64,000 nt of DNA from Geobacteraceae bacterium (GCA_043743795.1 JAYTVV010000020.1:2606-66605), one strand, 5' to 3'. Shown: positions 13,333-30,139, counted from the stretch's first letter. Notes: generated by a model not told the origin, from the sequence alone. Program-made: numbers and translations.

Positions 13333-13372
13333 ACACTATGAAAATAAAACGTCTCGTATCAGGGTTCAAATC
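13333..13372 (+). repeat. Left direct repeat (att) duplicating the smc start
   Basis: acactatgaaaataaaacgtctcg+tatcagggttcaaatc matches 30097-30139 apart from a 3-nt indel. Encodes a stub MKIKRLVSGFKS-stop. Confidence 0.85.
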
Positions 13373-13425
13373 ATAATTTTGCAACAAACTGATAATGTGT
13401 GAATATTTGCGGCATGTTAATTGTG

Positions 13426-13444
13426 TAGTGACCGCATAGTGACC
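13426..13444 (+). promoter_or_regulatory. Two TAGTGACC repeats, 11-bp phasing (candidate integrase arm-type sites, left arm)
   Basis: tagtgacc at 13426 and 13437. The same octamer is repeated at the right end of the element. Confidence 0.45.
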
Positions 13445-13464
13445 AGCGTGAAAAAATAAAGGGG

Positions 13465-13500
13465 TTAAAAAAGGGTGTCTCACATTGGTAGACACCCTTT
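13465..13500 (-). terminator. Rho-independent terminator downstream of the serine recombinase gene
   Basis: aagggtgtc-(11 nt)-gacaccctt with a T-run on the minus strand. Confidence 0.6.
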
Positions 13501-13542
13501 CTCTTACTGTTTTTTTGCATACAGATTCACACCAAATATCAT

Positions 13543-14121
13543 TCAAACCGTATGCGGTCTTTCGCCGTTTTTTTTATTCTCCTGCATAATTCGGTACACG
13601 CTTGCTACACCGATCCCGACTTCATCCGCAACGGCCTGCTTGGTCTTCCCCTGGCGGATCAATTCAAGAACCTTTGCAGCCTGTCCCTTGGCGGTCGGCT
13701 TGCGGCCTTTGTAGGCTCCGGCCTCTTTGGCTATCCTGATACCCTCCCGCTGTCGTTCTAACATCATCTCTCTTTCAAACTGTCCGATTGCTGCCAGCAT
13801 GGAAAGCATAAGTTTGCCGGTCGGGGTGGTCGTGTCCAGGTTGATGTTTAGAACTTTGAAGGCAACGCCTCTCGCTTCCAGGGCGTCGACGATCTCCAAT
13901 AGGTGTTTTGTGCTGCGGGCGATACGATCCAGCTTGCAAACTATAACGGTATCGTCTTTGCGAAGATGCTCTAACATGGCTGCTAATTGTGGCCGGTCTT
14001 GCTTCACTCCGCTGGCCTTCTCTTGAAACACCTTATCGACCTCGGCAGCTTGAAGTTGTTCAAGCTGTGCGGTCAATTCCTGGCCTTCTGTGCTTACTCG
14101 TGCATATCCGATGTTTGCCAT
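13543..14121 (-). CDS. Serine recombinase (resolvase/invertase family)
   Basis: 192 aa. N-terminal catalytic motif IGYARVSTEGQ. Also VCKLDRIARS, GQFEREMMLERQREGI and a C-terminal HTH. Confidence 0.9.
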   Translation of the reverse strand: MANIGYARVSTEGQELTAQLEQLQAAEVDKVFQEKASGVKQDRPQLAAMLEHLRKDDTVIVCKLDRIARSTKHLLEIVDALEARGVAFKVLNINLDTTTPTGKLMLSMLAAIGQFEREMMLERQREGIRIAKEAGAYKGRKPTAKGQAAKVLELIRQGKTKQAVADEVGIGVASVYRIMQENKKNGERPHTV

Positions 14122-14136
14122 GTCCTTGCCCTCCTG

Positions 14137-14164
14137 ATGTATTTATCATTAGATATAAATACAT
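14137..14164. promoter_or_regulatory. 28-bp palindromic site upstream of the recombinase gene (res/crossover-like)
   Basis: atgtatttat-cattagat-ataaatacat, perfect 10-bp arms, 16 nt upstream of ATG 14121. TGATAG/CTATCA motifs recur through 14166-14324. Confidence 0.4.
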
Positions 14165-14464
14165 TATGATAGCATTGTATTGAATGTCAATATTTTCCTA
14201 TCAATAGGATTAAGTACTTTAACTTTGTATCGTCTTTGGCTGAATTCGGGGGCTGTAAGTTACTGATTTTACGTTGGCGAGTCTATCACGCAAAATCTAT
14301 CTTTAGACCAAGATCTATTGATAGCGTGAGAATAAAAGAAAACCGGGCCTCGTCATAGATTCCCGGTTTTCTTTCTGGTAGTCAGTTTGATTATTCGGTG
14401 TGTATAACTATGGCGGAAGTTTCGGGCTATTGTTGTACGTTTATCGGGCTGATTGAACCAAGCC

Positions 14465-14737
14465 TTAGACCGTTAATTGGGTTGCTTTTCTCACCAGTTT
14501 CAAATGACATGTCTTGTTGTCTCTTTTGTCTGACAATGTGTTTTGCAGGGTGTGCCACGCCAGAGGTAACAATGCTACCGCTGTTGAACAATTCATGTCT
14601 GCACGATGAATCACGGCACATAACAGGGCTTTTTTTGATTCAGGGGATAAAATTCGGTATTCGTCGTCAATCTCACTGAATGCTTGCTGGTCAGTCGTTG
14701 GGGTTGCTGCCAATCTCTTTAAGAGCCTGTCTATCAT
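14465..14737 (-). CDS. Hypothetical protein (90 aa)
   Basis: ORF only, no recognisable motif. Followed by hairpin 14338-14370 (aaaaccggg..cccggtttt). Confidence 0.4.
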   Translation of the reverse strand: MIDRLLKRLAATPTTDQQAFSEIDDEYRILSPESKKALLCAVIHRADMNCSTAVALLPLAWHTLQNTLSDKRDNKTCHLKLVRKATQLTV

Positions 14738-15060: not shown

Positions 15061-18000
15061 TCAACCCCCTGCTTGTATATGCCGGAAACGCTTCTGTGCC
15101 AGCATCATGCGTAACCCCTTCTTTTCTTCATTGGTGGCAACTTCATATACCCGCTGTGCCTCGTCATATGACAACCGCTTGAATGTGATCTGTATCGGTG
15201 CAAGTCTGGTGTTCGTAAAAACATGTCGTGCCTGAAGCGGTGTTATCTTGCGTTCCTTCAACGCCTCCTGCATTTCCTGCCGTGCCTGCTGCGGGTCACG
15301 TCTGGCAAGTCCTGATAGGTGTTGAACAAGCTGGCTTCGCTCAAACTCTTCTGCAGTCTTGGTTCCTTGTGGCATTCTATCTCGTACCAGTTCCCCGGCA
15401 AGCTGTTCCGCCTTGCTCTGGTTTAATGCCGCTGGGGCGGGCATGATTCCAATTAGCGGGGCGGTCATGGTAAGGATGTTTCCACCGCGTTCAAGATCCT
15501 TGGCAGCGCCCTTCATCCAGAACGGCACAAACGCCTTGGCTGTAAATTTTCCGGCCTGTGCCAGCTGCATAATCGGGTTATCGCCTTCGTGCCGAATTTC
15601 AACTCCGTAATAATCCTTGTTGCGGATCAGGTCGCCAACAAGTGAAATCATGGGGTGTGACTTGTGAAGAAGTGTTGTCCCTGGCTTCATGGCATAGGCG
15701 TAAACGTCCTTGGCGTATGTCGGCAGCATGAAGCGTTCCGGATTGCCCTTTTCATCCTTCCTGCCGGTACGGAAAGCAAGTAGGTCTTTCCAATCATCAG
15801 GCGGTTCGCCGGTAAACATTGCGGTAAGCAGCACGTTGGCAAGGGCGGTTGTTATCAGTAGTGAAAGTGTGTACGCGCTTCGGTCGGATAGCTCCGGCTT
15901 TTTGCCGCTGGCGGTATCCTTGGTAAAGGTGATCAAGTCTTTCAGTCCGCCTCCAACTTCCAAAATGGTGCCGCCTGTCCAGCCTGGAGCCCTGATAAGC
16001 GCCTGGGTCAGGTTCTTTGCCACACTGTGAATAAACAGCCGGTCATAGACAACCTGCCCGAGACGTGAATCGATTCTGTTCCAAGCCTGTTGCATGGCGG
16101 CACGTGTTTCTCCATGGCTGGCATTGGGGTGGCGGTTGCTCCAGTCGTGCGCCATTTCTGTGAATACACCCAGCTTCTGGCGTGGTACCAGCCATTCCAT
16201 AATTGGCCGTGCCGATTGCTCCACGATAGAAGGAATCAAGCGGGCTCCGGCTCCGATCTTATTACCGTCACTCCATGCTTGCAGCATGTTCTGCGTGGTA
16301 GTGGTCTGGAACCTGCTGTCCATAATCCGCCGTGCTCCGGCCATAGTCAGCCATTCAATAACCTGCGGCATCTCCTTGGCGGCTGCTTCGTCACCCATCC
16401 ATGCTTTTAAAACCTTGTCGCCAAGTTTCGGGTTGAGATACCAGGCGGCGGGGGCATGCTTGAAATATTTACCGGCTTCGCTGAAATCGCCACGGACAAG
16501 CGCCTTGATTCCCAGGGCACCATGGCTCACGACCGCCTCAAGCGACGTAAAACCGGCATGGAAGGCGCTGAAAACTCCCAACTGGAATTGATTCAGGGTA
16601 TTGGCAGCTTTCATGTAGGCGCTGAATGGCTTGCCGACATACTTGTTCGTGTACAGGTTCTGGCTCAGATAATTGTTGAACACCTGCGCAACGTCTTCCC
16701 GTGCAATATAGCGGAAACTTTTTAGCTCTCCCGGTTGGCCGCTGTTGGCGTCCTGGTGTGCTCGCTTTGTAACCAGTCCATACTTGCCGGAAATATCGCC
16801 GTATCCGTCCGGCATCTTGTCCCCTGCCGGGACCAGCTCCACCAGTCCAGAATTCTCCATTGCCTGAAGTGCAAGGTGAGCGTTGATGTATTTGTCCATC
16901 TCCCCCATTTTCAGCATGACAAGGTCAATGGGGTTGGTTGAAACAAGTTCAAATCCGGCGTCAATGCCAGTCATGATGTCATCGAACACTCTTGCTTTGC
17001 TGAATGCCTTGCTCCCCTCTAGTGGCCTTTTTGAAAGTCTGGTGTTGATTTCCTTGGCGACGTCTTCACCCTTTTTCCAGATGTGGGGGAAATAGTTCTC
17101 TCTGACATTTTCAAGGGCCCCTGTCCCCATGTCCTGGATCGTCCTTGTCTTCTGCTCAAACATAGCCTTGATGGTATCGGCTATGTTTTGCAGCTCCGGT
17201 GTCGCCTGTTGCTGGCCGATATCGAGATTCTGCATAAAAGCGATTCTGTCAGCTTCTGCCATGCGGTTAAACACCTTATCAGCCAAGGTCACGGAAGATT
17301 GCATCAAGTCCAGGATGCGGGAGGTTTTGGTCGTAGTCATTCCGGCCTGCATGGTGGCCTTGTTCAATCCGGTAATAAACTTCTCTTTGCCGTGTTCCTG
17401 TCTCCCCATGCCTTCAATCAGGATGCGTCCAGCCTCCTCTGCCGCTGCGCTGCGGGTCATAGGTGCGGTGGCGGCCTTGATCCCGTCCCATGCTGCCGCC
17501 ATGCCTTCCCCGGCTGTTTTCAGGGCTGGCTTTATGTCGGACTTGACAAAGGTTGATTTGTCGCCGATACGGTTCAGGTGCCCTGCTACGTTTTCAGTAT
17601 TGCGGCGTATATCGGCCATGGAATATTTGACGGTGGGTGTAACATCGGTTGTGTTGGCTGTGGTTTCCCATGCCTTGCCGCTGGCTACGTCCTTCATAAT
17701 CTCCCGTGTAGGGTCAAGCATGGTGCGGATTTTGGCAAAAAAGTTGTAGACTGTTTGCAGGAACAGATGGTGTTGGCGTTTCCGCTCAAAAGCTCCGTTG
17801 TCTCTCAGGCGCTGGTATTCCGCCTCCGCTGCTTCCTCGGTACCAAACTTGGTCATGATGATGGCGCGTTGCTTACCGTTCAAAGCCATAGCCATAGCGG
17901 CGTGAAAGGTTTCGTGATGGATCTGGCCCGTGCCTTGTTCAGTCAGGGCAATTACAGCGCCATGCTCCAGCTTGCGGAATTCGGCAACCGGCTTTTCGTG

Positions 18001-20172
18001 CTGGCTGAACTTCCGGCCATAGGCGGCCTCGGCGACACCGGTATCAAAATGAATATCGCCAACAGGTGAAACCTTGATTGTGGCACCGTTCTTCAGCGCC
18101 ACATGATAGCCGTCTTCTGTCTGGCTGATGGTCTGACCGGGAAAAGCGTTTTCTACTGTCTGGCGCTGTATCTCCGGGGTGTTCTGTTCAGATCGGGCGG
18201 TTTCTCTGAACAGCTGCAAGCTGATTGGTAAATATGATTTGGTTGGTGATACGGTACCATTTTCCGTGATGCGCTTTACGACAAGTCCTGGATTGCCGGA
18301 GGCGTCCTTGTCCCTGCCGACGTACTCATATCGTAAACCATTAGCGCCGTTAATAATGACTTCACCTTTATTGATTTGCGGTATGTGTGCTTCGGCAATC
18401 TGTGCCGGTGGCAATGGCGCTGCCTGTTGCGGTGGTGCGGTGCTGGCTATGGTGTCGGCTACTGCCTGAACGGGTAAAGTGTCGGTTGCTGCCGGACTGT
18501 GATACTCAACGTGATAATTGCCGTTGTCTTCAGTGGGTGGCAAGATCCGCAAGTTTCCCTTGTCAGTCCGGACATGGTACGCGCCTTCCTGATCTTGTAA
18601 CACAAGCCCCTGCTCTGCCGCTGGTTGCAAATATTTAGCGACGGCGTAGTCGAGTCTGGGTTTGTGTGGTCTGTCCCATACCTGAACTGCTTGACCGCGT
18701 TCCTGCCCCATTTTGATAAAGGCTTGGAGCGTGCCGTGCAGGCTGCTGGTGGGGATGATTGCGGGTTGTGCCGGTGGATCTATGGCGGCACTCTCTGTCA
18801 AGCTGCCTGTCTGCGGTGAAAACATCGTCGCGCCCCGGGGTTCTTGCCGTGACGTGAAATCAGTTGGTTCCGGTGTCGCTTGATCAACCGGCGCAGCTGT
18901 ATTCAGCATGTCGGTTGCGCCCTCTGACAAAACTGGTTGCGGCATTGTGGTTGCCGCTGCCGGTATTCCTGATGAAACTGCTCTTGTCAGTGCCCCTTCC
19001 GGAATGTTTTGCTGTTCGTCCAGAGCCCGTGGTGTCAAAGGGTTCAGCACATTATCGTCAAGCGTCATGCCGTATGGGGCACTGCCGGTGTCCTGGTCGC
19101 CGTGGATGGCGTCAAAAGCATGGGCAGCGAAGTTGTCGGCTGCAACAGGGCTGCTCTTGGCGAGTTCGTCATAGACGATCTCGGCGGCGTTGCTGCGTAG
19201 TTCGGGTGCGATGGCCGGATTTTGCAAGGCGCTGGTGATGGCGTTCATCTTCACGGCGTGGGATGCGTGCGCCGGAATGCCGAACGGCAACAACAGGGCG
19301 CTCATTCCCAGGGTGGGGGCAATGGCATCCTGTGCCGCTTGCCATGGTGTTTGCCGGTCATAGCCGTAGTGCTGTTCAACGGCAGCTTCTCCGGCTCCCT
19401 GCCCCATTTCGGTCAAGGTCTCGGCTCCGGCGGTTTCCAGGGCGTTACCGGCAAAGCGGCCTATGGTTCCGGGGTTGGTGAATGATTTCAGGGTGGCTTG
19501 TGCCGCTGTCTGCTCCCCTTTGTTCAATAGCTTTCCGATGGCGCTTTTAGCCATGCCGCCGCCAATCCCCATAAAGCGCCCAGCCAGCGCTCCGCCTGCG
19601 GTTTCGCCGCCCCATTCGATAGCGCCGGTTATACGGCCCGCCTTCTGGGCTTCGATAACGCGCGGATCATCCGGCAGGGTGGCGGCTTGTTCCGGGGTGA
19701 GACCATGTCTGGCAAGGCCCTTCTCGTATGTTTCCTGTGCCTGGGCAAGGCCAGCCGGGGCAGCGGCAAGGGCACTGCCGCCAATAAGCGCCACCCCTGC
19801 CGGTGCACCGACTCCGGATAGCAGCAACCCCGCGCCAACTGCTGGCGCTACGCTCTGCGGGATCATGCGGGCACCTTTGGCGAGTGCACCGGTGATAGTG
19901 CCGTCAGACGCGGCGGATGGCTGCATTTCCGGCAGGGTTGCAATGGCGGCGGCATCTTCCGCCAAACCTTTGCCGGTTTCGTATACAGGTTGGCCGGGAG
20001 CGCTGACGTACTGCATGGCTTTGCCTGCCATGCGTGGAAAGTCGGAAAATGCTCCGGCTTTCAGCTGGCTCCAGATTTCACCAAGGGTGGAACGCTTTTC
20101 TGGAAGGACTTCAGGTGGCGAAACTGTCCTACTCATGTTTTTATCAATTTCTGTATAGAAGTCGGCGGACAT
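15061..20172 (-). CDS. Giant ORFan protein (1703 aa) with Gly/Ala-rich hydrophobic N-terminal third, one HExxH motif and C-terminal hydrophobic segments
   Basis: Uninterrupted 5.1-kb ORF. GGGAGGA RBS before ATG 20172. HETFH at aa 753-757 (nt 17902-17916). I saw no Walker A or other NTPase motif. Confidence 0.8.
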   Translation of the reverse strand: MSADFYTEIDKNMSRTVSPPEVLPEKRSTLGEIWSQLKAGAFSDFPRMAGKAMQYVSAPGQPVYETGKGLAEDAAAIATLPEMQPSAASDGTITGALAKGARMIPQSVAPAVGAGLLLSGVGAPAGVALIGGSALAAAPAGLAQAQETYEKGLARHGLTPEQAATLPDDPRVIEAQKAGRITGAIEWGGETAGGALAGRFMGIGGGMAKSAIGKLLNKGEQTAAQATLKSFTNPGTIGRFAGNALETAGAETLTEMGQGAGEAAVEQHYGYDRQTPWQAAQDAIAPTLGMSALLLPFGIPAHASHAVKMNAITSALQNPAIAPELRSNAAEIVYDELAKSSPVAADNFAAHAFDAIHGDQDTGSAPYGMTLDDNVLNPLTPRALDEQQNIPEGALTRAVSSGIPAAATTMPQPVLSEGATDMLNTAAPVDQATPEPTDFTSRQEPRGATMFSPQTGSLTESAAIDPPAQPAIIPTSSLHGTLQAFIKMGQERGQAVQVWDRPHKPRLDYAVAKYLQPAAEQGLVLQDQEGAYHVRTDKGNLRILPPTEDNGNYHVEYHSPAATDTLPVQAVADTIASTAPPQQAAPLPPAQIAEAHIPQINKGEVIINGANGLRYEYVGRDKDASGNPGLVVKRITENGTVSPTKSYLPISLQLFRETARSEQNTPEIQRQTVENAFPGQTISQTEDGYHVALKNGATIKVSPVGDIHFDTGVAEAAYGRKFSQHEKPVAEFRKLEHGAVIALTEQGTGQIHHETFHAAMAMALNGKQRAIIMTKFGTEEAAEAEYQRLRDNGAFERKRQHHLFLQTVYNFFAKIRTMLDPTREIMKDVASGKAWETTANTTDVTPTVKYSMADIRRNTENVAGHLNRIGDKSTFVKSDIKPALKTAGEGMAAAWDGIKAATAPMTRSAAAEEAGRILIEGMGRQEHGKEKFITGLNKATMQAGMTTTKTSRILDLMQSSVTLADKVFNRMAEADRIAFMQNLDIGQQQATPELQNIADTIKAMFEQKTRTIQDMGTGALENVRENYFPHIWKKGEDVAKEINTRLSKRPLEGSKAFSKARVFDDIMTGIDAGFELVSTNPIDLVMLKMGEMDKYINAHLALQAMENSGLVELVPAGDKMPDGYGDISGKYGLVTKRAHQDANSGQPGELKSFRYIAREDVAQVFNNYLSQNLYTNKYVGKPFSAYMKAANTLNQFQLGVFSAFHAGFTSLEAVVSHGALGIKALVRGDFSEAGKYFKHAPAAWYLNPKLGDKVLKAWMGDEAAAKEMPQVIEWLTMAGARRIMDSRFQTTTTQNMLQAWSDGNKIGAGARLIPSIVEQSARPIMEWLVPRQKLGVFTEMAHDWSNRHPNASHGETRAAMQQAWNRIDSRLGQVVYDRLFIHSVAKNLTQALIRAPGWTGGTILEVGGGLKDLITFTKDTASGKKPELSDRSAYTLSLLITTALANVLLTAMFTGEPPDDWKDLLAFRTGRKDEKGNPERFMLPTYAKDVYAYAMKPGTTLLHKSHPMISLVGDLIRNKDYYGVEIRHEGDNPIMQLAQAGKFTAKAFVPFWMKGAAKDLERGGNILTMTAPLIGIMPAPAALNQSKAEQLAGELVRDRMPQGTKTAEEFERSQLVQHLSGLARRDPQQARQEMQEALKERKITPLQARHVFTNTRLAPIQITFKRLSYDEAQRVYEVATNEEKKGLRMMLAQKRFRHIQAGG

Positions 20173-20273: not shown

Positions 20274-21311
20274 TTATCCATTTGCGACACCAATAAGTAT
20301 TTGTGATACAGAACTTGCCATTGATGACGCGCCTGAAACGGCGGCGGAAGCTGCGGCAATTTTGTTATGTGCATTGGCGGCGGCTGTCTCTACAGCTTTT
20401 CCCACGTCTGCGATATGTTGGTTTACTGCGGTCGTAAAATGACTTGCACTCAAGTGGTCTTTTGATTCCTGTATACTGGCATTTCCTTTCGTAATATCCA
20501 TGCGTAAAGCGAACTCCTTGATTTTCTGATTCGCTTTTTCGACTTCGGTAGAAACTTTTGAACGGTATTCTTCCAGGATTACTTTTGTAGATGTGTCAAA
20601 TACCTGGATAAGGGAGTTTGCATACCGCATGTTGAAATCAACATCCGCATTGTGCGCTGCCATTTGTTGTTGGATTGAAAATTGGTAGTTGTCTTTTGCC
20701 CACTCAAATATTAACTTTACCAAGTCCCGTGACACCTGAGAAAGTTCAAACATATATTGCTGTTGAGCAGATAGTTTTAGTGCGGTGGTCATGGAGTTGG
20801 GATAAGTAAAACCTCGTGCTCCGGTGGTAGAATGAGCGGCGCTTATTGAGTCACGTAATGTCTGTTGTTTTCGCTCTCGATCTGCGGCATAGAGTGCGAT
20901 TTGTAATTTATCCGTTTCGTTGGTTAGCTTGGAAATCACCCTTGAAACATCATCATTAGATGTTATGTTGCTGGTGAAGTTCGTCAGCAGCGTTTTTAAA
21001 TTAGTCCAGGAGCCCTCACTCCAGTTTGGTGTGGTGCAGTCGTTAAGTATTGGCACGCTTGGCATGTTTGTTGGTAGAGATATGCTCGCAAGTGAAGTAT
21101 CAAATGATTCCAGGGCTGTTTTTATAGTAGAATCGGTTTCAGGGAATCCGGTATACACTCCCAGGACAGGGGTGTTTATTGCTGACCAATTAACAGCCGA
21201 CCAGTCATTAACTGAATTATTCAGCAATGTAATTGACGTTTCTGCCTTGTCCTTCATGGAGGTTATGACGCTATTTATTATCGTTTGCATCGAGTCTGTA
21301 GTTGCGGCCAT
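20274..21311 (-). CDS. Hypothetical protein (345 aa), Ser/Thr/Asn-rich N-half, helical Ala-rich C-terminus
   Basis: ORF in a visibly AT-richer segment (hand-counted sample lines give 37-52% GC, against ~57% in the giant gene). No recognisable motif. Confidence 0.6.
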   Translation of the reverse strand: MAATTDSMQTIINSVITSMKDKAETSITLLNNSVNDWSAVNWSAINTPVLGVYTGFPETDSTIKTALESFDTSLASISLPTNMPSVPILNDCTTPNWSEGSWTNLKTLLTNFTSNITSNDDVSRVISKLTNETDKLQIALYAADRERKQQTLRDSISAAHSTTGARGFTYPNSMTTALKLSAQQQYMFELSQVSRDLVKLIFEWAKDNYQFSIQQQMAAHNADVDFNMRYANSLIQVFDTSTKVILEEYRSKVSTEVEKANQKIKEFALRMDITKGNASIQESKDHLSASHFTTAVNQHIADVGKAVETAAANAHNKIAAASAAVSGASSMASSVSQILIGVANG

Positions 21312-21347: not shown

Positions 21348-21536
21348 CTATTTAATTTGATGCTTGAATATTGTCATTAACTTGTCGGAAAGGTTGTCAG
21401 CTTTTTGCAGATGCTCTCGGGCTGCAAAAAAATCTTGGGTTTGTATGGCTTCAGCGGCCTTTACGGATGCTTCTGCATAATCACTTGCAATTTGGGTTGC
21501 TTCTTCAATTGATTGCTTTATTTCTGAATCAGTCAT
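21348..21536 (-). CDS. Hypothetical small helical protein (62 aa)
   Basis: ORF only. Same strand and operon context. Confidence 0.45.
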   Translation of the reverse strand: MTDSEIKQSIEEATQIASDYAEASVKAAEAIQTQDFFAAREHLQKADNLSDKLMTIFKHQIK

Positions 21537-21581
21537 GACGGTATCTCCTGTATTTGTGGTTTATGTGTTGGCCTGGGGTGA

Positions 21582-22169
21582 TTACGGATGCATTTCTTTT
21601 GGTTGAATGATGTTTTCAATAGTCACGTCAAGGTTGTACAGCGCCAGCCCCTTGCTTGCGCAATACTCGGCAAAGGTCGGGGAGTCTGGCTGATAGTGAT
21701 AGCCCTTGTTGTCAAACTCGTAATGGAGTCTATCCAGTTGATCTACGTCCTGGCGGTGCCAGTGTTCCTGCGTGTTGCGTAACAACGCCCAGTCGGCAGG
21801 TGTCCGTGAGTGGGTTTCCATACATCGGTTGTAAAGCTTTCGGAATAACCGCTCCCGGTCAACTGCGGCTTGGTCTCCCATCTCTTTGGTTATCTGCCCT
21901 GATATTGTTGTTCTCCGTGTTTCAATAATGCCGATTGCCTCCCGATACGGATCTTTGCTGAGCACCCGCAACTGGCCGATTTCCTGCTGTGCCGCTTCCA
22001 GTTTGCTTATGTCGGCCTCTCCTAATGCAACGGTGGCAATCAAGCCGGGTAAAGAGGCCTCCAGTTCTTCCAGTCGGTTGATAGCGGTTTGATATTGGTT
22101 GCTGATACGATTGATAGCTGTAAATAAGCGACTTTGTTCTGTGGTCAGTTGTTCAATATGCGGTGTCAT
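21582..22169 (-). CDS. Hypothetical protein (195 aa)
   Basis: ORF only. Predicted coiled-coil N-half. Confidence 0.55.
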   Translation of the reverse strand: MTPHIEQLTTEQSRLFTAINRISNQYQTAINRLEELEASLPGLIATVALGEADISKLEAAQQEIGQLRVLSKDPYREAIGIIETRRTTISGQITKEMGDQAAVDRERLFRKLYNRCMETHSRTPADWALLRNTQEHWHRQDVDQLDRLHYEFDNKGYHYQPDSPTFAEYCASKGLALYNLDVTIENIIQPKEMHP

Positions 22170-22186
22170 TGGTAGTATCTCCTTTG

Positions 22187-22501
22187 TTAGTGGGTTGCTG
22201 TAGATTTCGTTGAAGTCAGGTAACTGTTAATCGGTGGCGCTGGTGTTGAACCAAGAGAGCCTTTGAAATAGCGCCACTCAACGGGGGGCGGCTCTTTTGA
22301 TTCGCCCTGATCGCTTGTGCCATTACCCTCTGCGGAGATGCTTTCGCCTGGCTCCATCATCGTGTCCACTCCTTCACGGATCGAAGTTGCGGCATCCTCC
22401 AGCATGTCAGCAATTGCCTCTGGGTGGGTTTGCGGGTGTACCTCAATTTGCATCACCAGACCGCCGTTAATTTTCAGTTCAAATTTTGCTTCAAGACTCA
22501 T
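22187..22501 (-). CDS. Hypothetical acidic protein (104 aa)
   Basis: ORF 22187..22540 trimmed to MSLEAKFEL. Its ATG overlaps the stop of the upstream gene (ATGA at 22498-22501). Confidence 0.5.
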   Translation of the reverse strand: MSLEAKFELKINGGLVMQIEVHPQTHPEAIADMLEDAATSIREGVDTMMEPGESISAEGNGTSDQGESKEPPPVEWRYFKGSLGSTPAPPINSYLTSTKSTATH

Positions 22502-22719
22502 AGGGTTTTCTCCTTTTTCCAGGTAATCACGCACTTGCAATCCAACGTGTCAAAAATGTTTTGTAATTTTTCTATAATGTCTTCCATGATCCAGCAGGTG
22601 CCGTTAATAAAGTCATTGCCTTCTACACAAAATGATTCCAGTGCTGTTGCTAATGTTTCCAGCTTGATTATCTGCTTCTGCATCTCGTGCGGAAGATCTT
22701 CTAATGGGATTGTGGTCAT
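22498..22719 (-). CDS. Hypothetical protein (73 aa)
   Basis: ORF only. Tightly packed in the operon. Confidence 0.45.
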   Translation of the reverse strand: MTTIPLEDLPHEMQKQIIKLETLATALESFCVEGNDFINGTCWIMEDIIEKLQNIFDTLDCKCVITWKKEKTL

Positions 22720-22721
22720 AG

Positions 22722-22958
22722 CTACATCGCCTCCTGGATTAGTCGGATACGCGGGATAATGGATTCCATAATCCGGAGTGATCCATAAAAAATTTCTGAA
22801 TGTTTGGGCTCAAGGTTTGCCGTTTCGGCGATACTGTCAAGGGCGTGAAAAACCGCAGCCAGCTTGGTGAACTCAATCTGAAGCTCGGTAGCTGGATCAG
22901 GCACGTAATTAGGTGATTCCATGTAGTCGTTGCGCTTGGGCAAGGTTGCTTTAGCCAT
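22722..22958 (-). CDS. Hypothetical protein (78 aa); a diverged partial copy lies at 12673-12830
   Basis: Conservation of its 3' half in the decayed sibling element (about 80% nt identity) argues that it is a real gene. Confidence 0.55.
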   Translation of the reverse strand: MAKATLPKRNDYMESPNYVPDPATELQIEFTKLAAVFHALDSIAETANLEPKHSEIFYGSLRIMESIIPRIRLIQEAM

Positions 22959-23031
22959 GGCCGTTTCTCCTTTCGTTGGTGGTTAAAAATCAATGCTGCC
23001 ACTTCTGCGAGCGGTGGGCGGGTCTGGACGT

Positions 23032-23364
23032 TTACTGTTGTGCATTAAACGTCTGTGTCATCTGGTGAAACGTAGCTCTGGCACGGGCTATATCGCCGTT
23101 TCGGAATGCGGTGATATGTTCCTGCCACAACTCCGGGTGATGCTTCTTAATCCAGTTCCAGCAATCTCCTTTCGGGTCTTTATCCGATATCTCCCGGCAG
23201 AGTGTCCGATACTCGTCTGCATCGGCTGTGATTGCTATGGCGTAACCGGCGGCAATCATCTTCTGAGCCTTTTCAGGCGGCAGGGTGATCGTCTCCCCTG
23301 CCTTCAGAGTTCTGACCTCGCCATTCAGGCGGACGCTACATGGTTTGGCAATCCGGATCGTCAC
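23032..23364 (-). CDS. Hypothetical protein (110 aa)
   Basis: Start overlaps the primase-helicase stop by 4 nt. Confidence 0.5.
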   Translation of the reverse strand: MTIRIAKPCSVRLNGEVRTLKAGETITLPPEKAQKMIAAGYAIAITADADEYRTLCREISDKDPKGDCWNWIKKHHPELWQEHITAFRNGDIARARATFHQMTQTFNAQQ

Positions 23365-25294: not shown

Positions 25295-25969
25295 TTAAGC
25301 CCCTGCAAAGATGGCGTCGTAGCGGGTGTCGTTTGTGGCTGCTGCTGTCGGTGTTTGGTGCTCCCAGTCCAGCCAATTTTCAAACCAGCGATAACCGCTC
25401 TTTGGTTGCCTGTTGAATCCGTTTGCATGATCCCGCTTTAGTGTAGCAAGGTAGTTGTCCAGAGATGTTTTGACCCGTTGGCAGTCAGCTTCATTTTTCA
25501 CGGTGGCAGAGAAGTGTGCCTGCGCTTTCTTCTTACCGTCCTTTGCGGGATAAACTTTCCATAGCGTTTCAAAAAAATCCGACAATATATCTTCTCTCTT
25601 CTTATCTCTTATATATAGTCGTTCCGCCTCTGTTCCGTCTCTGTTCTGTCCATGTTCTATGGCTAATTGTAACTTACTGTTTTTGCGTTGCTTTGCTGTT
25701 CCGTCAATGTTCCGCTGTTGTTCCGCCTCTGTTCCACTGTTTTTGATAGGAATTGATAACGATTCATCGCTATCAATATTGAGTATTTCGGCAATAAATC
25801 TAATGACTTTGCCTGGAGACCATGACCATATTTTTGCATATTCACGCATTGAACGTTCCTTGAAATTGAACCGATCTACTTCGTACTGATAAGCTGCTTC
25901 CAGTCGAGTGAATGGTCGGTCTTTTGGTAGATCGTCTGTGAAGCAATGTGGTACTTTTGCAAACAACAT
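25295..25969 (-). CDS. Replication-associated protein (initiator/helper candidate) containing internal iterons
   Basis: 224 aa. Sits directly upstream of the primase-helicase. The central low-complexity linker (GTEAEQQRNIDGT...NRDGTEAERL) is encoded by the GTTCC repeat clusters. Confidence 0.55.
   Translation of the reverse strand: MLFAKVPHCFTDDLPKDRPFTRLEAAYQYEVDRFNFKERSMREYAKIWSWSPGKVIRFIAEILNIDSDESLSIPIKNSGTEAEQQRNIDGTAKQRKNSKLQLAIEHGQNRDGTEAERLYIRDKKREDILSDFFETLWKVYPAKDGKKKAQAHFSATVKNEADCQRVKTSLDNYLATLKRDHANGFNRQPKSGYRWFENWLDWEHQTPTAAATNDTRYDAIFAGA
25621..25735. repeat. Two clusters of four GTTC(C/T) repeats with ~11-bp phasing (iteron-like origin candidate)
   Basis: gttcc/gttct at 25621, 25632, 25643, 25654 and at 25698, 25710, 25720, 25731. 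The 16-mer gttccgcctctgttcc occurs twice. An AT-rich stretch lies at 25580-25620. Confidence 0.55.
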
Positions 25970-26707: not shown

Positions 26708-26974
26708 TTATGCGGCCTGTTGTGCCGATGTGTGTTGGTACTCCGTCTTACCAGTGATCCATGACTGTACGCTTGAGAACCGGTATCTGACTGATTTTGA
26801 AATTTTGATAAATGGTGGCGCGTCTGTGCCGTAAATACGGGCACGGTTCAGGGTGGCTACGGCAAGCCCCGTGATTTCTGAAACCTGCTTGACATTGAGC
26901 AGGCGGTCGCCAGAGGCCGGATCGGGCGGCGGTGTTGGCTTTGTTACATTTTCAAGATTGTGGGGCTTGGGCAT
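26708..26974 (-). CDS. AlpA/excisionase-type HTH protein
   Basis: 88 aa. LLNVKQVSEITGLAVATLNRARIYG...PFIKISKSVRYRFSSVQSWI resembles the AlpA/Xis MerR-like HTH. AGGAG RBS. Confidence 0.7.
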   Translation of the reverse strand: MPKPHNLENVTKPTPPPDPASGDRLLNVKQVSEITGLAVATLNRARIYGTDAPPFIKISKSVRYRFSSVQSWITGKTEYQHTSAQQAA

Positions 26975-27000
26975 GTGGGCTCCTTTCGTATTGCCGAACT

Positions 27001-27053
27001 ATTATTATACAAGTGTATTGTATTGCTGTTATTATTATACAGTTGTATTGTAT
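27001..27053. promoter_or_regulatory. Two 23-bp direct repeats in the divergent AlpA/XRE intergenic region (operator candidates)
   Basis: attattatacaagtgtattgtat (27001) and attattatacagttgtattgtat (27031), 30-bp centre-to-centre. Confidence 0.5.
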
Positions 27054-27081
27054 GTCAACAATATTTTTCAGGAGGTCTAAT

Positions 27082-27765
27082 GTGGGGGCAACTTACCCAA
27101 GAATTATTGAACTGCTAAAAGAAGAATTTGAAGTAAAAGCTACTTCTAAGTATACGTTTTGTAAGAAGACTGGGATAAATCCAACAAGTGTAGAGAGATA
27201 CCTGTGTGGAATTTCTGAACCTAATCAAGCCTCGCTGAAAAAACTTGCTGATTATTTCGAGGTGTCGGTTGCGTACCTGCGGGGTGAATTGCCTGTTCCG
27301 GCAATGCTGGTAGGCTGGATTAATGAAGCTATTGAAAAACTCGGTATTGATAAACTTTCTGAAGCAACCGGTGTATTGCCTGAAAGCCTTCAAGCATATT
27401 CTGATTGTGAACGTATGCCGACAGAATCAGACTTTGTTAAGTTATCAGTATATTTTAAGGAACCGGTTAATAACTTAAGGGGCGGGATTAATAAGCTGTA
27501 TATGAAAAATGAATCATCGAATGATGAGCTATTGGCTTTTGAAGGCTTAGTATCTGCATGTGGTGGTGTTTTTAGATCGGTTTTATCAGAGCAACCTGAG
27601 ATGTCATCCGAGGTATTAGAATCTTTACTTAATATTGCTACTTTTGTTCGCGAGGCGCGCACAAATAGTCAACGTAGAAATAATAAACTTGATGAAATTA
27701 GGGGAAGTGCCGAGGAGTTAATAAAGAAATATGGGGCTTTGGTGAATCAAAAAAATTTTAATTGA
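27082..27765 (+). CDS. XRE-family regulator with two HTH-like modules (repressor candidate)
   Basis: ORF 26932..27765 trimmed to GTG 27082 (AGGAGG 6 nt upstream). KYTFCKKTGINPTSVERYLCGISEPNQASLKKLADYFEVSVAYLRGE is a typical XRE HTH. Confidence 0.7.
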   Translation: MGATYPRIIELLKEEFEVKATSKYTFCKKTGINPTSVERYLCGISEPNQASLKKLADYFEVSVAYLRGELPVPAMLVGWINEAIEKLGIDKLSEATGVLPESLQAYSDCERMPTESDFVKLSVYFKEPVNNLRGGINKLYMKNESSNDELLAFEGLVSACGGVFRSVLSEQPEMSSEVLESLLNIATFVREARTNSQRRNNKLDEIRGSAEELIKKYGALVNQKNFN

Positions 27766-27799: not shown

Positions 27800-27832
27800 A
27801 AAAAGGCGGCTTGGTGCAGGTCGCCTTTTTGT
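27800..27832. terminator. Bidirectional terminator between convergent XRE and antitoxin genes
   Basis: aaaaaggcg-(13 nt)-cgccttttt. Confidence 0.6.
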
Positions 27833-27921
27833 TTCTAGTTTTGTCGATATTATCAATCACCCGTGCCATAAAGATAGTTTCAAAGTGATAGTTTTGATGG
27901 CGGGCGGAGCCCCTGCAACCC

Positions 27922-28251
27922 TTACGCCGCCGCAACCATCAGATGCGCTTGTTGTCTGGAACGCGGTTTGGCTTTCACAACGATCTGCACGTCTCTCCCG
28001 AGTGCATTAAGAAAATGGAACAACCGTTCCATAGAAAAGCCTTTTAGTCTCCCTCTGATTAATGCTGAAACCTTAGGTTGATCTATTCCTAGCAATTCCG
28101 CTGCTTGTGCCTGAGACAGTCTGCGACTTTTTATAATTCCTTGGATCTGGATAGCCAATTCTGCTTTTGCCAACATCTCTTCAGCATCAGGCAAACCCAT
28201 ATCCGCAAATACATTGCCGCAACTTGGATAAGATTCAATTTCTTCGCTCAT
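27922..28251 (-). CDS. HigA-like XRE antitoxin
   Basis: 109 aa. NVFADMGLPDAEEML..LSQAQAAELLGIDQPKVSALIRGRLKGFSMERL pattern. Lies 2 nt after the toxin gene. Confidence 0.75.
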   Translation of the reverse strand: MSEEIESYPSCGNVFADMGLPDAEEMLAKAELAIQIQGIIKSRRLSQAQAAELLGIDQPKVSALIRGRLKGFSMERLFHFLNALGRDVQIVVKAKPRSRQQAHLMVAAA

Positions 28252-28253
28252 GT

Positions 28254-28625
28254 TTACTTTCTCCCTCTGTGCTGATGCATCTCTTCGGCCATTTTCAAAC
28301 GAACCTTGATCTTGTCTATCTCTGCCTGCGGGGTAGCGATTCCTGCTTTTGATTTCTTCTGGAATACGTGCAAAACATAGAGTGCATCCACAAAGCGAAC
28401 AGTATAAATGGCACGGTATGCATTACCGTCATAATCCTCTACGACCTCAAGTACTCCAGAACCCCCAAAACCTTTAAGCGGCTTTGCATCAACATGTTTA
28501 CCGCCAGTCTGCGCAATGTAAAGGGCAACCCCGAAAACCCGCCGAACATCCTCCGGCATTTCTTTCATGTCCTTGCGGCTGCTACTGATCCATTCCAGGG
28601 GCTTAAGTTTTGACAGTTTGTTCAT
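28254..28625 (-). CDS. HigB/RelE-superfamily toxin (Gp49/DUF891-like)
   Basis: 123 aa. AIYTVRFVDALYVLHVFQKKSKAGIATPQAEIDKIKVRL is typical of this family. Toxin-first order. Confidence 0.7.
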   Translation of the reverse strand: MNKLSKLKPLEWISSSRKDMKEMPEDVRRVFGVALYIAQTGGKHVDAKPLKGFGGSGVLEVVEDYDGNAYRAIYTVRFVDALYVLHVFQKKSKAGIATPQAEIDKIKVRLKMAEEMHQHRGRK

Positions 28626-28710
28626 GGTAACTCCATTATGCCATTTTTAGCATAAACAACAAGTATAAAAAGTGAGCTCGGTGCATAGTCAGCATGATGT
28701 CACCGCCAGT

Positions 28711-29973
28711 TTATGCCGCCTGTTGTCCCTGATCTTCAACCGGCTTAGCCGTCGCCATCTCCATAATTCTGTCAACAACTCGCTGCATCGGTTCCCGCAA
28801 GCGCTCCGTGTTCATTATGATATATCCACCGGTAACATCACTCCCGGCGCTACGGCTATCCCCGTCCTTATCTACTCCCATGCTGTGATTCAGTAGCGCC
28901 TTCAGCGTGTAGTGTCCAATATCCAAAGATTCAGCAATCGTTATAAAAGTCCGGCGGAGATCGTGAAAGCAGAACTGTACCCCGCTGGCCTGGATTATGT
29001 CACGCTTGTAGTTGTCTGGGTTGGACAGGTGAGGTGATGGGTATTTGCCAGGGAATATGTATTCATTTTCCCAACCTATTGCTTTGCGCTTCAATAGCAG
29101 TTGGTGGAGCTGCTTTGACAGCGGCATGGTTACACGGTCATCTTCGGGCTTCTCCCCCTTTTTCTTTTCCGGAATGAAAGTAAATGTTTTTGCCTTGAAA
29201 TCAATATCTGACCACTTCAGCATCGCCGCCTCGCTACGTCTCAGCCCGGTATAACATAAGGTTAAAATATAATCCCTGCCCTTGTGGTTGTAATACTCTG
29301 TAACAGCCTTGTACCACGCCGGAAAGTCTGCGGCCTTGATCATGGTCATTCGCCGCTTACGTGGTGTCCAGTCCCGCCCCCTGATCTCTCTTACAGCGTC
29401 GACGGGGTTGAATGTGATTATTTTATGATGCAATGCGATACCAAAACGGAACAGGCCACGCAGCAGCTTTATTGAATTGGCAGCTTGTACCTTTCCGTTT
29501 TCCTTCTCCATATCAGCCAGGCGATTGATTACCATTATGGCAGTGATTGTGTCAGCCGGTAGTTGTAGCCAATCTTTGAAGTGGTTATTCATCCAAGATT
29601 CATATTGGTATGTGGTCGACTTTGCCAGAGGCGTTTTGCGGCTGCTTATATATTGACTGTACAGGTCTTTTAAGGTTATTTTATCAATTTTTATGGCCTT
29701 TTTAGGGTCAGGGTTTTCACCGTGCTCCATCTGGCGGATGTAATCCTTAGCAACCGTGCGGGCCTGCTCGGGGGAAAATTCCCCGTAACGGCCAATCTTG
29801 ATAAAGGTCTTGTTCTTTTCACCGCGTATCCGCCGATGCACCATAAAAGTCAGGCTGTCTTTTGTGGCCCGTGCCCCGAATCCTGATAGTTCTGTATCCC
29901 AGTAATCAACCTGGCCGGAAACAACAGGTTCAATTTTCCCCATGTTGTTTTTGGTGATTTTCAATTTTGGCAT
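28711..29973 (-). CDS. int: Tyrosine integrase (P4-like, DUF4102-type N-terminus)
   Basis: ORF 28711..30021 trimmed to MPKLKITKNNMG (ATG 29973). Has catalytic-region motifs (TGLRRSE, FHDLRRTF, LLNHS, GGYI). Confidence 0.9.
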   Translation of the reverse strand: MPKLKITKNNMGKIEPVVSGQVDYWDTELSGFGARATKDSLTFMVHRRIRGEKNKTFIKIGRYGEFSPEQARTVAKDYIRQMEHGENPDPKKAIKIDKITLKDLYSQYISSRKTPLAKSTTYQYESWMNNHFKDWLQLPADTITAIMVINRLADMEKENGKVQAANSIKLLRGLFRFGIALHHKIITFNPVDAVREIRGRDWTPRKRRMTMIKAADFPAWYKAVTEYYNHKGRDYILTLCYTGLRRSEAAMLKWSDIDFKAKTFTFIPEKKKGEKPEDDRVTMPLSKQLHQLLLKRKAIGWENEYIFPGKYPSPHLSNPDNYKRDIIQASGVQFCFHDLRRTFITIAESLDIGHYTLKALLNHSMGVDKDGDSRSAGSDVTGGYIIMNTERLREPMQRVVDRIMEMATAKPVEDQGQQAA

Positions 29974-30014
29974 AGTGCCCCCGTAGTGACCAACAAAGTA
30001 ACCATATAGTGACC
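29973..30014 (+). promoter_or_regulatory. Four phased TAGTG(A/C)CC-type repeats (candidate arm-type sites, right arm)
   Basis: tagtgccc 29973, tagtgacc 29984, aagtaacc 29996, tagtgacc 30007. Spacing 11-12 bp. Overlaps the int start and promoter region. Confidence 0.45.
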
Positions 30015-30096
30015 AGCACAATGAAATTATAGGGATACATTAACATACATGAGTAACCGTACACAACTGATATATAACGCTTTAGCTATCATCATC

Positions 30097-30139
30097 ACAC
30101 TATGAAAATAAAACGTCTCGAATTATCAGGGTTCAAATC
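30097..30139 (+). repeat. Right direct repeat (att) overlapping the functional smc start
   Basis: Matches 13333-13372. Contains smc ATG 30102. Confidence 0.85.

Follow-up and report, generated by a model that had tools for sequence, protein, structure and literature searches.

The 5' end of smc in this Geobacterales chromosome is occupied by a site-specific integrative element of 16,764 bp (13333 to 30096, plus one core copy), an assignment that is strongly supported. The giant protein encoded by its largest gene is of a type known elsewhere from phages, and the element therefore probably travels in the particles of another phage. We regard a helper-dependent phage satellite as the best reading, and put its chances at about even.

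An integrative element at the start of smc

The element is bounded by two copies of the smc start, at 13333-13372 and 30097-30139, consisting of 24 + 16 identical bases with a 3-nt indel between them. The first 24 nt of both repeats, ACACTATGAAAATAAAACGTCTCG, lie at 13333-13356 and 30097-30120, the 16-nt part, TATCAGGGTTCAAATC, at 13357-13372 and 30124-30139, and an extra AAT (30121-30123) is present in the right repeat only. These repeats are exact and non-random: throughout the window, i.e. the whole 64-kb stretch of DNA analyzed, a degenerate smc-start pattern occurs at two sites only, which are the repeats themselves (0.01 expected from shuffles). The right repeat opens an ORF of 1176 aa with matches to Pfam SMC_N (2.6e-68) and SMC_hinge, the first 300 residues of which are 92-93% identical to proteins of Geobacterales/Desulfuromonadales MAGs, and the left repeat reads MKIKRLVSGFKS followed by a stop. 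A P4-type tyrosine integrase gene with Arm-DNA-bind_3 and Phage_integrase domains (28711-29973, minus strand) is separated from the right repeat by 124 nt. An earlier note on this DNA had given the same structure and coordinates for the repeats, an in-frame SMC start on the right, a stop on the left and an abutting P4-type integrase, all of which agree with the present analysis. Of the five TAGTGACC occurrences in the window, four are no more than ~115 nt away from an att repeat and share one orientation (0.92 expected). The boundary features are the following:

13333..13372, plus strand: left att repeat, serving as attL for the intact element and as attR for a decayed one; pseudo-start of smc ending in a stop
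13426..13444, plus strand: TAGTGACC in two copies within the left inner arm, putatively bound by the integrase as arm sites
29984..30014, plus strand: TAGTGACC in two copies and AAGTAACC within the right inner arm, likewise putative arm sites
30022..30101, plus strand: element-derived smc leader replacing the native promoter, with CTGATATATAAC, a possible extended -10 (41 related loci compared)
30097..30139, plus strand: right att repeat (attR), carrying the functional smc start
30102..33632, plus strand: smc, the target gene, 1176 aa (SMC_N and SMC_hinge)

Integrases 58-72% identical to this one lie head-to-head with smc in all 12 of the other loci that have enough upstream sequence (L002, L004, L015, L031 from Trichlorobacter thiogenes, L032, L035, L199, L200, L201, L203, L209 and L279). 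Among the 41 related species read of the 80 retrieved, which provide the empty sites for this comparison, most have a different smc upstream sequence and no integrase, and about 17 show a native, conserved promoter-like block, CTGGACAT-N17-CTCTGATAAAGT, immediately preceding the ATG. An element-type leader is common to the occupied or scarred sites. The constant association of integrase and smc, together with the native promoter in most related species, strongly supports the 5' end of smc as a dedicated attachment site, where the promoter and first codons of the gene appear to have been replaced by those of the element. A strict sigma-70 scan detected no plus-strand promoter for smc in the element-derived leader. 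The proposal of the earlier note that an integrative element targets the first codons of smc is thus borne out by the 12 loci, by the native promoters of most related species, by the arm repeats just inside both ends, and by the position of the junction in circular relatives. We found no report of smc as an attachment site in the searchable literature, and no excised form of the element; three other assemblies carry it integrated and 100% identical.

The dusA-specific elements, such as IMEVchUSA3, and the ICE SXT at prfC likewise use a tyrosine integrase to enter a conserved housekeeping gene at its 5' end; the reading frame is restored by N-terminal codons from the element, which also brings a new promoter (PMC8409611). 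The smc element differs from these by its target, by an unrelated cargo with no conjugation or mobilization genes, and by a leader that is a putative promoter. Its P4-type integrase would recombine the element-borne smc start (about -5 to +39, with degenerate similarity beyond) with the chromosomal one; the element would provide the functional smc at attR with a leader, a promoter and perhaps the first codons, and the displaced copy at attL would end in a stop.

A decayed tandem copy adjoins the left repeat

The similarity between the two ends reaches ~520 nt leftward beyond the left repeat (12815-13372 aligns colinearly with 29581-30139, at 66.5% over 585 nt); this is explained by a truncated integrase pseudogene that, with its upstream arm, directly adjoins this repeat on the left. 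Three remnants were identified:

12568..12681, minus strand: C-terminal fragment of an IS21-family IstB (Pfam IstB_IS21 7.6e-11, profile positions 201-236 of 238)
12676..12825, minus strand: fragment homologous to the 78-aa gene of the element (83% nt identity to 22726-22875)
12819..13236, minus strand: frameshifted integrase pseudogene from the decayed copy, reduced to codons about 8-146

The pseudogene is 56-59% identical to the intact integrase in two frames (tblastn), and the second fragment is 78% identical over 50 residues to the product of the 78-aa gene. Two IS-end-like repeats, AAAATTGACCCA, are present at ~12515-12552, just left of the IstB fragment. The left repeat is the junction with an older, decayed tandem copy of a related element (12568-13332), of which these three remnants, one of them the scrap of an IS21, are left. 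This copy is absent from the earlier note, which had named a larger segmental duplication as the result that would undo its interpretation. The similarity does extend, but it corresponds to a decayed tandem copy and not to a generic duplication, and this strengthens the att-site reading. The extension past the left repeat is also what a chance match or an ordinary segmental duplication without any mobile element could invoke; however, it is made of an integrase pseudogene and an arm region arranged as at the right end. With the integrase found at smc in 12 of 12 loci, the native promoters and the shuffles, this effectively refutes such an origin.

Gene content

All genes of the element are intact:

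13543..14121, minus strand: small serine recombinase of the resolvase/invertase type, 192 aa (Pfam Resolvase 8.6e-44, and HTH_7)
15061..20172, minus strand: 1703-aa polyvalent protein with an N block, a HExFH zincin motif and a C block
20274..21311, minus strand: 345-aa all-helical protein, with homologs in podophage structural modules near giant polyvalent-protein genes
21348..23364, minus strand: seven small genes (62, 195, 117, 73, 78, 110 aa), several common to L082 and L279
23361..25292, minus strand: primase-helicase, Toprim and RecA-like AAA_25 (Toprim_2 4.7e-11, AAA_25 1.2e-10)
25295..25969, minus strand: Rep-like initiator (PHROG 270 and 9327, replication initiation/primosomal)
26708..26974, minus strand: AlpA-like HTH protein, putative excision/activation factor (HTH_17 7.4e-4, below cut-off)
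27000..27053, plus strand: two 24-nt direct repeats between the divergent alpA and xre, putative operators
27052..27765, plus strand: XRE-family regulator, putative maintenance repressor (HTH_3 2.6e-06)
27922..28625, minus strand: HigB-like (Gp49) toxin and HTH_37 antitoxin (Gp49 2.4e-22, HTH_37 2.2e-28)
28711..29973, minus strand: P4-type tyrosine integrase of an smc-specific clade, 420 aa from the ATG (Phage_integrase 1e-12, Arm-DNA-bind_3 3.2e-08)

The translated integrase shows the catalytic-residue motifs GLRRSE, HDLRR, LNHS and GGY (R...HxxR...H...Y). The AlpA-like gene heads a long minus-strand operon and has counterparts at the same position in related elements (71% aa identity in L279, 53% in L031/L004). 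Two clusters of 11-bp iterons inside the Rep gene (25619-25741) form a putative origin, the primase-helicase is 93% identical in L082, and the serine recombinase, 79-85% identical in L081, L082 and L084, likely resolves multimers of the circular form. Nine genes have no recognizable family in Pfam or PHROGs; the seven small genes reach no curated Pfam cut-off and match neither PADLOC models nor any PHROG of known function. Pfam searches at curated cut-offs and PHROGs of known function revealed no capsid, portal, tail or large terminase among the ORFs, and Pfam searches of all of them no relaxase, T4SS or coupling protein. A profile search likewise recovered no TerS-like ORF in 13301-30150 (best E 0.5) or in L082, with E>0.4 throughout. 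The modules listed in the earlier note (XRE, AlpA-like, Rep-like, primase-helicase, TA pair) and its failure to recognize capsid, terminase, portal, tail or conjugation genes both held in the Pfam and PHROGs searches. The 1703-aa gene, which makes up 30% of the element, is absent from that note.

A giant polyvalent protein

No Pfam domain is matched by the 1703-aa protein itself. Its conserved parts are an N block spanning roughly residues 5-450 and an all-alpha C block spanning roughly residues 860-1700, with an invariant HExFH zincin motif (residue 753) between them. The N and C blocks are 55-78% identical to proteins carrying InPase, and more distant relatives carry DdrB-ParB, ART-PolyVal, LPD37 and LPD38, which would make it a polyvalent protein by homology of its scaffold blocks. 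It resembles the phage polyvalent proteins (P1 DarB/DdrB, N4 virion RNA polymerase) in being giant and multidomain with a zincin HExxH module, but differs in being encoded by a small element without virion genes. In the survey by Iyer et al. (2017; PMC5512222), InPase, DdrB-ParB and LPD38 occur only in phage-type, virion-packaged polyvalent proteins, and ~40% of the polyvalent proteins surveyed sit in conjugative elements.

The C block has 187 matches in IMG/VR viral contigs; in both contigs inspected it forms the C-terminus of a ~3100-aa protein, whose gene adjoins phage replication genes in one of them. Neither block matched cultured phages (INPHARED) or any of the 72,556 PLSDB plasmids. An AlphaFold model of the C block (pLDDT 79) was found to match solely phage polyvalent, tail and internal-virion proteins (70 BFVD matches at E<1e-3, zero PDB matches); its predicted fold resembles the C-terminal portions of phage polyvalent proteins and the 'internal virion protein D' of a Roseobacter podophage. 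The adaptor/nozzle modules of podophages contain homologs of the all-helical 345-aa protein, with DarB-like giant proteins nearby; a fold search with the 345-aa protein gave no clear match.

A family of related elements with circular members

Related elements of 14-18 kb have in common a polyvalent protein (1600-2100 aa), a resolvase and an iteron-bearing Rep gene. The layout of the family includes an integrase, a divergent XRE/AlpA-like switch, a Rep whose gene contains the iterons, a helicase that is either DnaB-type or, as in the smc element, a fused primase-helicase, the polyvalent protein and the small resolvase. This compact gene set was found in at least seven loci and at least three different att sites, with 55-73% identity between polyvalent proteins; integrase modules are exchanged between family members, hence their different att sites. 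The closest relative, L082, has an exact 24-nt flanking repeat at the groEL 3' end, and L279 is a second polyvalent-protein element at smc. The iteron layout of the Rep gene is conserved in L082 and L083. L084, L085 and L086, whose integrase differs from that of the smc element, represent one identical circle of 14,594 bp in three datasets, with permuted starts and terminal overlaps of 127, 30 and 30 nt; its junction separates the resolvase gene from the integrase gene, the position expected from the boundaries of the smc element. L083, L084 and L279 encode a full-length small terminase (Terminase_2, 54-61 bits in L083 and L084, cut-off 26), with no large terminase, portal or capsid among their precomputed Pfam annotations.

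The homologs of the polyvalent and 345-aa proteins in phage genomes, and the truly decayed copy next to the element, would also suit a non-mobile podophage leftover that kept an integrase, replication genes and one internal-protein gene. Such a decayed prophage is improbable, given the intact genes of the smc element, the recurrence of the compact gene set and the exact circle formed by one member; convergence on a single architecture is not expected from independent decay. Slightly more improbable still is an autonomous virus of an unfamiliar type with particle proteins beyond current profiles, for which there would be room in the nine genes without family and in the two large conserved blocks of the giant protein that have no assigned function. 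Against this, the minimal 14.6-kb circle gives 6 kb to the polyvalent protein and has, besides replication and regulation genes, few ORFs, all <110 aa; the predicted fold of the C block is that of C-terminal modules in tailed-phage proteins and not that of a capsid protein; and a lone small terminase implies reliance on the large terminase of another phage.

An integrative plasmid or integrative mobilizable element, alternating between chromosomal and plasmid states and moving, if at all, by a borrowed conjugative apparatus, is a more serious possibility, though clearly less probable than a satellite. The polyvalent protein would then be transferred by type IV secretion or function solely within the cell. 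A plasmid could explain the circular relatives, the Rep with iterons, the helicase, the highly conserved resolvase, the TA modules and the missing small terminase of the smc element, and is compatible with the conjugative share of the polyvalent proteins surveyed. However, precomputed Pfam annotations of L081-L086, L279 and L280 contain no relaxase, coupling protein or T4SS, any more than the smc element does; the InPase, DdrB-ParB and LPD38 of the protein's relatives are reported from the phage type only; the C block is present in viral contigs and absent from PLSDB; and the small terminase of three members has no role in a plasmid.

A proposed phage satellite with a polyvalent protein

The family resembles PICIs and other phage satellites in its size, integrase, divergent XRE-type repressor, AlpA-like gene heading a long operon, and own replication initiator with primase/helicase, as well as in its lack of capsid, portal, tail and large terminase; the smc element itself combines an integrase, a repressor/AlpA switch and an autonomous replication module within the 7-20 kb of such islands. 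The lone small terminase of satellites is shared by three members, whereas the smc element has no such packaging-hijack gene. In contrast to PICIs, a giant polyvalent protein takes up 30-40% of the genome, the small resolvase belongs to the core of the family, and no capsid-size redirection or helper-interference genes are recognizable. No paper linking polyvalent proteins with satellites was found in a literature search. P4-like satellites likewise combine an AlpA-like regulator and a primase-helicase with a P4-type integrase that has an arm-binding domain, and P4 can exist both as a plasmid and integrated. The P4 helicase is of the alpha type and differs from the Toprim + RecA-like (AAA_25) one of the smc element, whose Pfam and PHROGs matches include no P4-type Psu, Sid or Delta proteins.

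We count against a satellite that the resolvase, TA pair and iteron Rep are classic plasmid features, that the small terminase is absent from the smc element and L082, that neither block of the polyvalent protein matched cultured phages, and that the phage-only status of the domains rests on a 2017 survey. Overall, the choice that the earlier note had left between satellite, integrative plasmid and unfamiliar virus narrows toward the satellite, which is favored at about even odds.

As a satellite, the element would be held silent by the XRE repressor until derepression, probably by a helper phage, leads to excision by the AlpA-like protein and the integrase. The circle would be replicated by Rep, the iterons and the primase-helicase, its multimers being resolved by the resolvase. 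Capsids of the helper phage would take up the DNA along with the polyvalent protein of the element, and perhaps also the 345-aa protein. On infection of the next cell, these proteins would be ejected alongside the DNA and may aid entry or counter host defences.

Integration at the start of smc

The earlier note had proposed an element of ~16.8 kb at the first codons of smc, with repeat positions that were confirmed exactly: ACACTATGAAAATAAAACGTCTCG is present, in identical form, at 13333-13356 and 30097-30120, followed by TATCAGGGTTCAAATC at 13357-13372 and 30124-30139, with an additional AAT in the right repeat. The right repeat is indeed the start of SMC, opening a 1176-aa ORF with SMC_N (2.6e-68) and SMC_hinge domains, and the left repeat does end in a stop, its translation being MKIKRLVSGFKS. 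A degenerate smc-start pattern matches only these two repeats in the window (0.01 matches expected from shuffles). A 420-aa integrase harboring arm-binding and tyrosine-recombinase domains is encoded on the minus strand, its start lying 124 nt from the right repeat. Of the five copies of the octamer TAGTGACC in the 64 kb, four lie within ~115 nt of the att repeats, in a single orientation and just internal to both element ends, the pattern expected for integrase arm sites, for which they are candidates. The attP of the circular form is predicted to read ...CATCATCACACTATGAAAATAAAACGTCTCG(AAT)TATCAGGGTTCAAATCATAATTTTGC. When public assemblies were queried with the integrase and polyvalent protein, identical integrated copies only were returned, and thus neither an attP nor an empty site for the window element; looked up as exact proteins, the SMC and the resolvase were not on record in public assemblies. 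A tRNA was rejected as integration target, the tRNA scan of the window having found none.

The same arrangement recurs in related bacteria. A scan for the SMC N-terminus, with one genome per species, yielded 80 Geobacterales/Desulfuromonadales loci (best 92-93% aa identity). Integrases 58-72% identical to that of the window lie directly upstream of smc, in divergent orientation, in six of them, including the cultured Trichlorobacter thiogenes ATCC BAA-34, and a seventh locus harbors a remnant. Moreover, a metagenome scan with the integrase as query identified five more contigs with an integrase at least 63% identical and enough upstream sequence, and smc adjoins the integrase in all five, as it does in L279, a related locus that carries a polyvalent-protein homolog. 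With related integrases at smc in 12 of 12 loci (the six, the five metagenome contigs and L279), the core of the earlier interpretation, an element specific to the smc start, holds: the finding is real, and integration at this site is the work of a dedicated integrase clade. A scan of IMG/VR with the integrase retrieved distant relatives only (at most 41% identity over short segments). The left att repeat was not found in the other occupied genomes because the upstream sequence available was at most 10 kb.

A decayed tandem copy at the left end

The similarity between the two ends continues beyond the repeats, 12815-13372 being colinear with 29581-30139 (66.5% over 585 nt). Protein-level comparison identified a second, frameshifted integrase to the left of the left repeat (codons ~8-146). 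At ~12820 this pseudogene runs into the final 50 codons of a gene homologous to the 78-aa gene of the element (83% nt identity), and these are in turn joined to the C-terminus of IS21 IstB (Pfam 7.6e-11). Since the similarity continues leftward as integrase, gene and IstB fragments, the left repeat is the junction of a decayed older related element with the intact one, and the left end is a tandem array that was truncated later. The earlier note had counted it against its reading if the repeats proved to be part of a larger duplication; this applies to the letter, as the similarity extends to the left, but not in its intent, as the extension is a second integrase belonging to a decayed related element. 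A second integrase at the same site is additional evidence for the att site.

The IS21-family scrap (12515-12681), in direct fusion with the decayed copy, comprises the IstB C-terminus and two end-like repeats AAAATTGACCCA; the loss of the original left junction by deletion may be due to this scrap. A search for a displaced copy of the native smc promoter found it nowhere in the window, so the original left junction has been lost, probably along with the IS21-associated deletion. Left of the element lies what we take, by eye from the translations, to be a molybdopterin oxidoreductase operon, ending at 12381, and in the upstream synteny comparison no relative had any of the genes left of the element 5' of its smc.

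Replacement of the smc leader

The 70 nt 5' of smc were compared in 41 of the 80 loci (L001-L040 and L056). In about 17 of the 41, a promoter-like block (CTGGACAT-N17-CTCTGATAAAGT, or a sequence close to it) is conserved and stops ~10 nt short of the ATG, and about 13, together with both window copies, share another common leader, ...ATACAATAGGTTAG...CATGATACT-ATG. Wherever the integrase is present, the native smc leader is replaced by this element-type leader. Two of the ~13 loci, L016 and L033, have the element-type leader with housekeeping-type ORFs directly upstream and no integrase; from their N-terminal sequences, read by eye, these ORFs are presumably gpmI and typA/bipA. Both loci look like scars of lost elements, in which smc would still be running from element-derived sequence. 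The leader regions in the two scar loci lie at 9857-10000 (L016) and 9710-10000 (L033).

We infer that the element-type leader supplies the smc promoter. An extended -10-like CTGATATATAAC is present in it, and a strict sigma-70 scan gave no plus-strand match in the leader. The native CTGGACAT-N17-CTCTGATAAAGT lies within ~60 nt upstream of smc in L001, L003, L014, L017, L019-L023 and L025. No Shine-Dalgarno is visible with the native block in related species; the leader sequences suggest that the native smc mRNA in this group may be leaderless or near-leaderless. No description of smc as an att site was found in the searchable literature. It is a new and recurrent att site, at which the parasite would take over the smc promoter.

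Gene content of the element

The genes of the 16,764-bp element are as follows.

Genes of the element, reading the minus strand from right to left
Integrase (minus strand), first of the element
HigB-like/HTH_37 TA pair, after the integrase
XRE regulator, on the opposite strand to the rest, between the TA pair and the AlpA-like gene
AlpA-like HTH protein, then small ORFs, after the XRE regulator
Rep-like protein (PHROG replication initiation), with two clusters of 11-bp iterons inside the gene
Primase-helicase (Toprim + AAA_25), after the Rep-like protein
Seven small ORFs without assigned family, after the primase-helicase
345-aa protein (20274-21311, minus strand), 1703-aa protein (15061-20172, minus strand) and small serine recombinase (resolvase), the last three in this order

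No ORF of the element matched capsid, portal, tail, terminase, relaxase, T4SS or known defence-system families in Pfam, PHROGs and PADLOC. The few other matches are weak (Pfam below cut-off, PHROGs without known function, marginal PADLOC); no defence system was called by PADLOC, and a TerS profile found nothing among all six-frame ORFs of the element. A search near the resolvase for inverted repeats of an invertible switch gave nothing convincing, a terminator hairpin only. A 24-nt direct repeat, TATTATTATACARKTGTATTGTAT, is present twice between alpA and xre (27000-27053), and a 75% copy at 14162-14185 overlaps with the highest-ranking promoter match 5' of the resolvase gene; the alpA/xre region and the resolvase promoter may share an operator. 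The regulatory and replication layout resembles that of PICIs and P4-like satellites; Psu, Sid and Delta of P4 were not found in Pfam or PHROGs.

Phage affinities of the two largest cargo proteins

Both of these proteins show an affinity to phages. The 1703-aa protein harbors no Pfam domain and has 45 homologs. The 22 closest are 55-78% identical over an N block (~residues 5-450) and a C block (~residues 660-1700), some with an InPase domain between the two, and distant homologs (2-3 kaa) have the N block alone at the N-terminus or the C block alone at the C-terminus and carry DdrB-ParB, ART-PolyVal, LPD37 and LPD38. The homologs are 'polyvalent proteins', to which the window protein is assigned by homology of its N and C blocks; among polyvalent proteins, InPase, DdrB-ParB and LPD38 have been reported only in the phage type, whose members are considered to be carried in the phage head and to enter the cell with the DNA (Iyer et al. 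2017, PMC5512222). An HExFH zincin motif (residues 753-757; 17899-17913) is invariant in the window protein and its 22 closest homologs (23 of 23). It is probably the signature of a processing metallopeptidase module missed by all Pfam models, which fits the processing metallopeptidase described in polyvalent proteins (Iyer et al. 2017, PMC5512222).

The C block has 187 relatives among IMG/VR viral contigs. In the two contigs inspected it forms the end of a ~3100-aa protein, whose gene adjoins, in one of them, phage DNA polymerase, Erf, exonuclease, helicase and primase genes. The AlphaFold model of the C block is all-alpha (pLDDT 79, pTM 0.78), with no PDB match at E<=0.001 and 70 BFVD matches at E<1e-3; the named matches among the top 50 listed are all tailed-phage proteins, namely C-terminal parts of large polyvalent proteins, podophage 'tail protein' and 'internal virion protein D'. 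No match was found by tblastn of the N and C blocks against cultured phages and PLSDB plasmids, and profile searches with both blocks and the 345-aa family against PDB sequences gave nothing significant.

For the 345-aa protein, 52 homologs of about the same size were found. Three phage fragments have the homolog within a podophage structural module, in the order SU10-type adaptor, head-closure/virion-structural protein, 1700-2000-aa protein, 345-aa homolog and a protein of ~490 aa or larger (cut short in two of the three); in L168, the fragment profiled, the ~490-aa protein is followed by the N-terminus of a DarB-like giant protein. The model of the 345-aa protein is all-helical, with one helix of ~170 residues, and its BFVD fold search returned generic long-helix matches only, none significant, so that the link to the virion comes from gene context only.

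A family of small elements

The gene neighborhoods in which the polyvalent-protein homologs occur delineate a family of elements, 14-18 kb in size, with a circular form. A single circle of 14,594 bp was present in three datasets (L084, L085 and L086), with different start points and terminal overlaps of 127, 30 and 30 nt. It encodes, in order, integrase, XRE, AlpA-like, small terminase, a 308-aa protein, DnaB, polyvalent protein (1992 aa), RadC-HTH and resolvase, and its junction, between resolvase and integrase, matches the prediction from joining the ends of the window element. L084 (GCA_049295975.1, JBAQRP010000062.1) was deposited in a 'Minisyncoccia bacterium' MAG, probably a binning artefact since its relatives are in Desulfuromonadales genomes. 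L082 (16,860 bp) has a different integrase from that of the window and is flanked by an exact 24-nt repeat, GGCGGAATGTACTAGGCAGTACAT, at 37-60 and 16897-16920, which spans the stop codon of groEL; the end of another essential gene therefore serves the same cargo as att site. L083 is integrated elsewhere in a Desulfuromonadales MAG. L279, at smc, is 69% (integrase), 71% (AlpA-like) and 62-67% by block (polyvalent protein, 64% overall) identical to the window element. Members with integrases just 31% identical still have resolvases 79-85% identical, and the integrase is therefore a swappable module.

Inside their Rep gene, the window element (25619-25741), L082 (3715-3853) and L083 (7813-7929) have 11-bp iterons in two clusters separated by ~55 bp, a layout that is conserved in the family and is reminiscent of an origin within the gene for its initiator. 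A full-length small terminase is present in L083 and L084 (profile positions 1-137 of 141; 54-61 bits against a cut-off of 26) and in L279 (from precomputed annotation), and the precomputed Pfam annotations of the three show neither a large terminase nor a portal or capsid. The window element and L082 harbor a primase-helicase in place of DnaB, and lack the small terminase. L280/L281 represent a more distant polyvalent-protein element of ~18 kb, with Bro-N, a DnaG-type zinc-ribbon primase, BrnT/A and HicB modules, a resolvase and a different tyrosine integrase, indicating that the family is broader than the members analysed. These small replicons built around a phage-type polyvalent protein form a coherent family, apparently one not described before.

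Nature of the element and significance

That the element is a helper-dependent phage satellite is the most likely reading, though about as likely as not. It is favored by the lone small terminase of some members, by a polyvalent protein of phage-only type and by the absence of virion and conjugation genes, and weakened by the absence of the small terminase from the window copy, by the lack of any known helper phage or packaging, and by a resolvase, TA pair and iteron Rep that are plasmid-like. An integrative plasmid or mobilisable element, of which these last would be typical and the phage-only protein would not, seems rather unlikely. In a satellite, the XRE/AlpA switch would control excision, the circle would be replicated by Rep, iterons and primase-helicase, with multimers resolved by the resolvase, and transfer would occur inside helper phage capsids, the polyvalent protein being co-packaged and injected. 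Only tentatively do we propose the full scenario, a new Geobacterales satellite family that would fill helper capsids with its own DNA and polyvalent protein (for ejection or anti-defence), and whose integrase clade would have taken the smc promoter and start; host lineages that lost the element afterwards would go on expressing smc from the element-derived leader.

Elements at dusA and prfC likewise take over the 5' end and promoter of a housekeeping gene, so the principle is already known, and smc appears to join these two as a gene captured in this way by a mobile element. The element-type leader is present in about a third of the 41 related species compared, some now without the integrase, so that a parasite may repeatedly have changed how a chromosome-organisation gene is expressed. 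Should the elements be satellites, 30-40% of the genome would be spent on a protein that travels in another's capsid, a strategy that to our knowledge is undescribed for satellites; no paper linking satellites with polyvalent proteins was found in the literature searched. The polyvalent-protein idea would then extend from phages and conjugative elements to hyperparasites. With its defined att sites, its 14.6-kb circle and the lone small terminase of some members, the family offers a concrete system for testing the satellite hypothesis, in metal-reducing bacteria that are of environmental importance.
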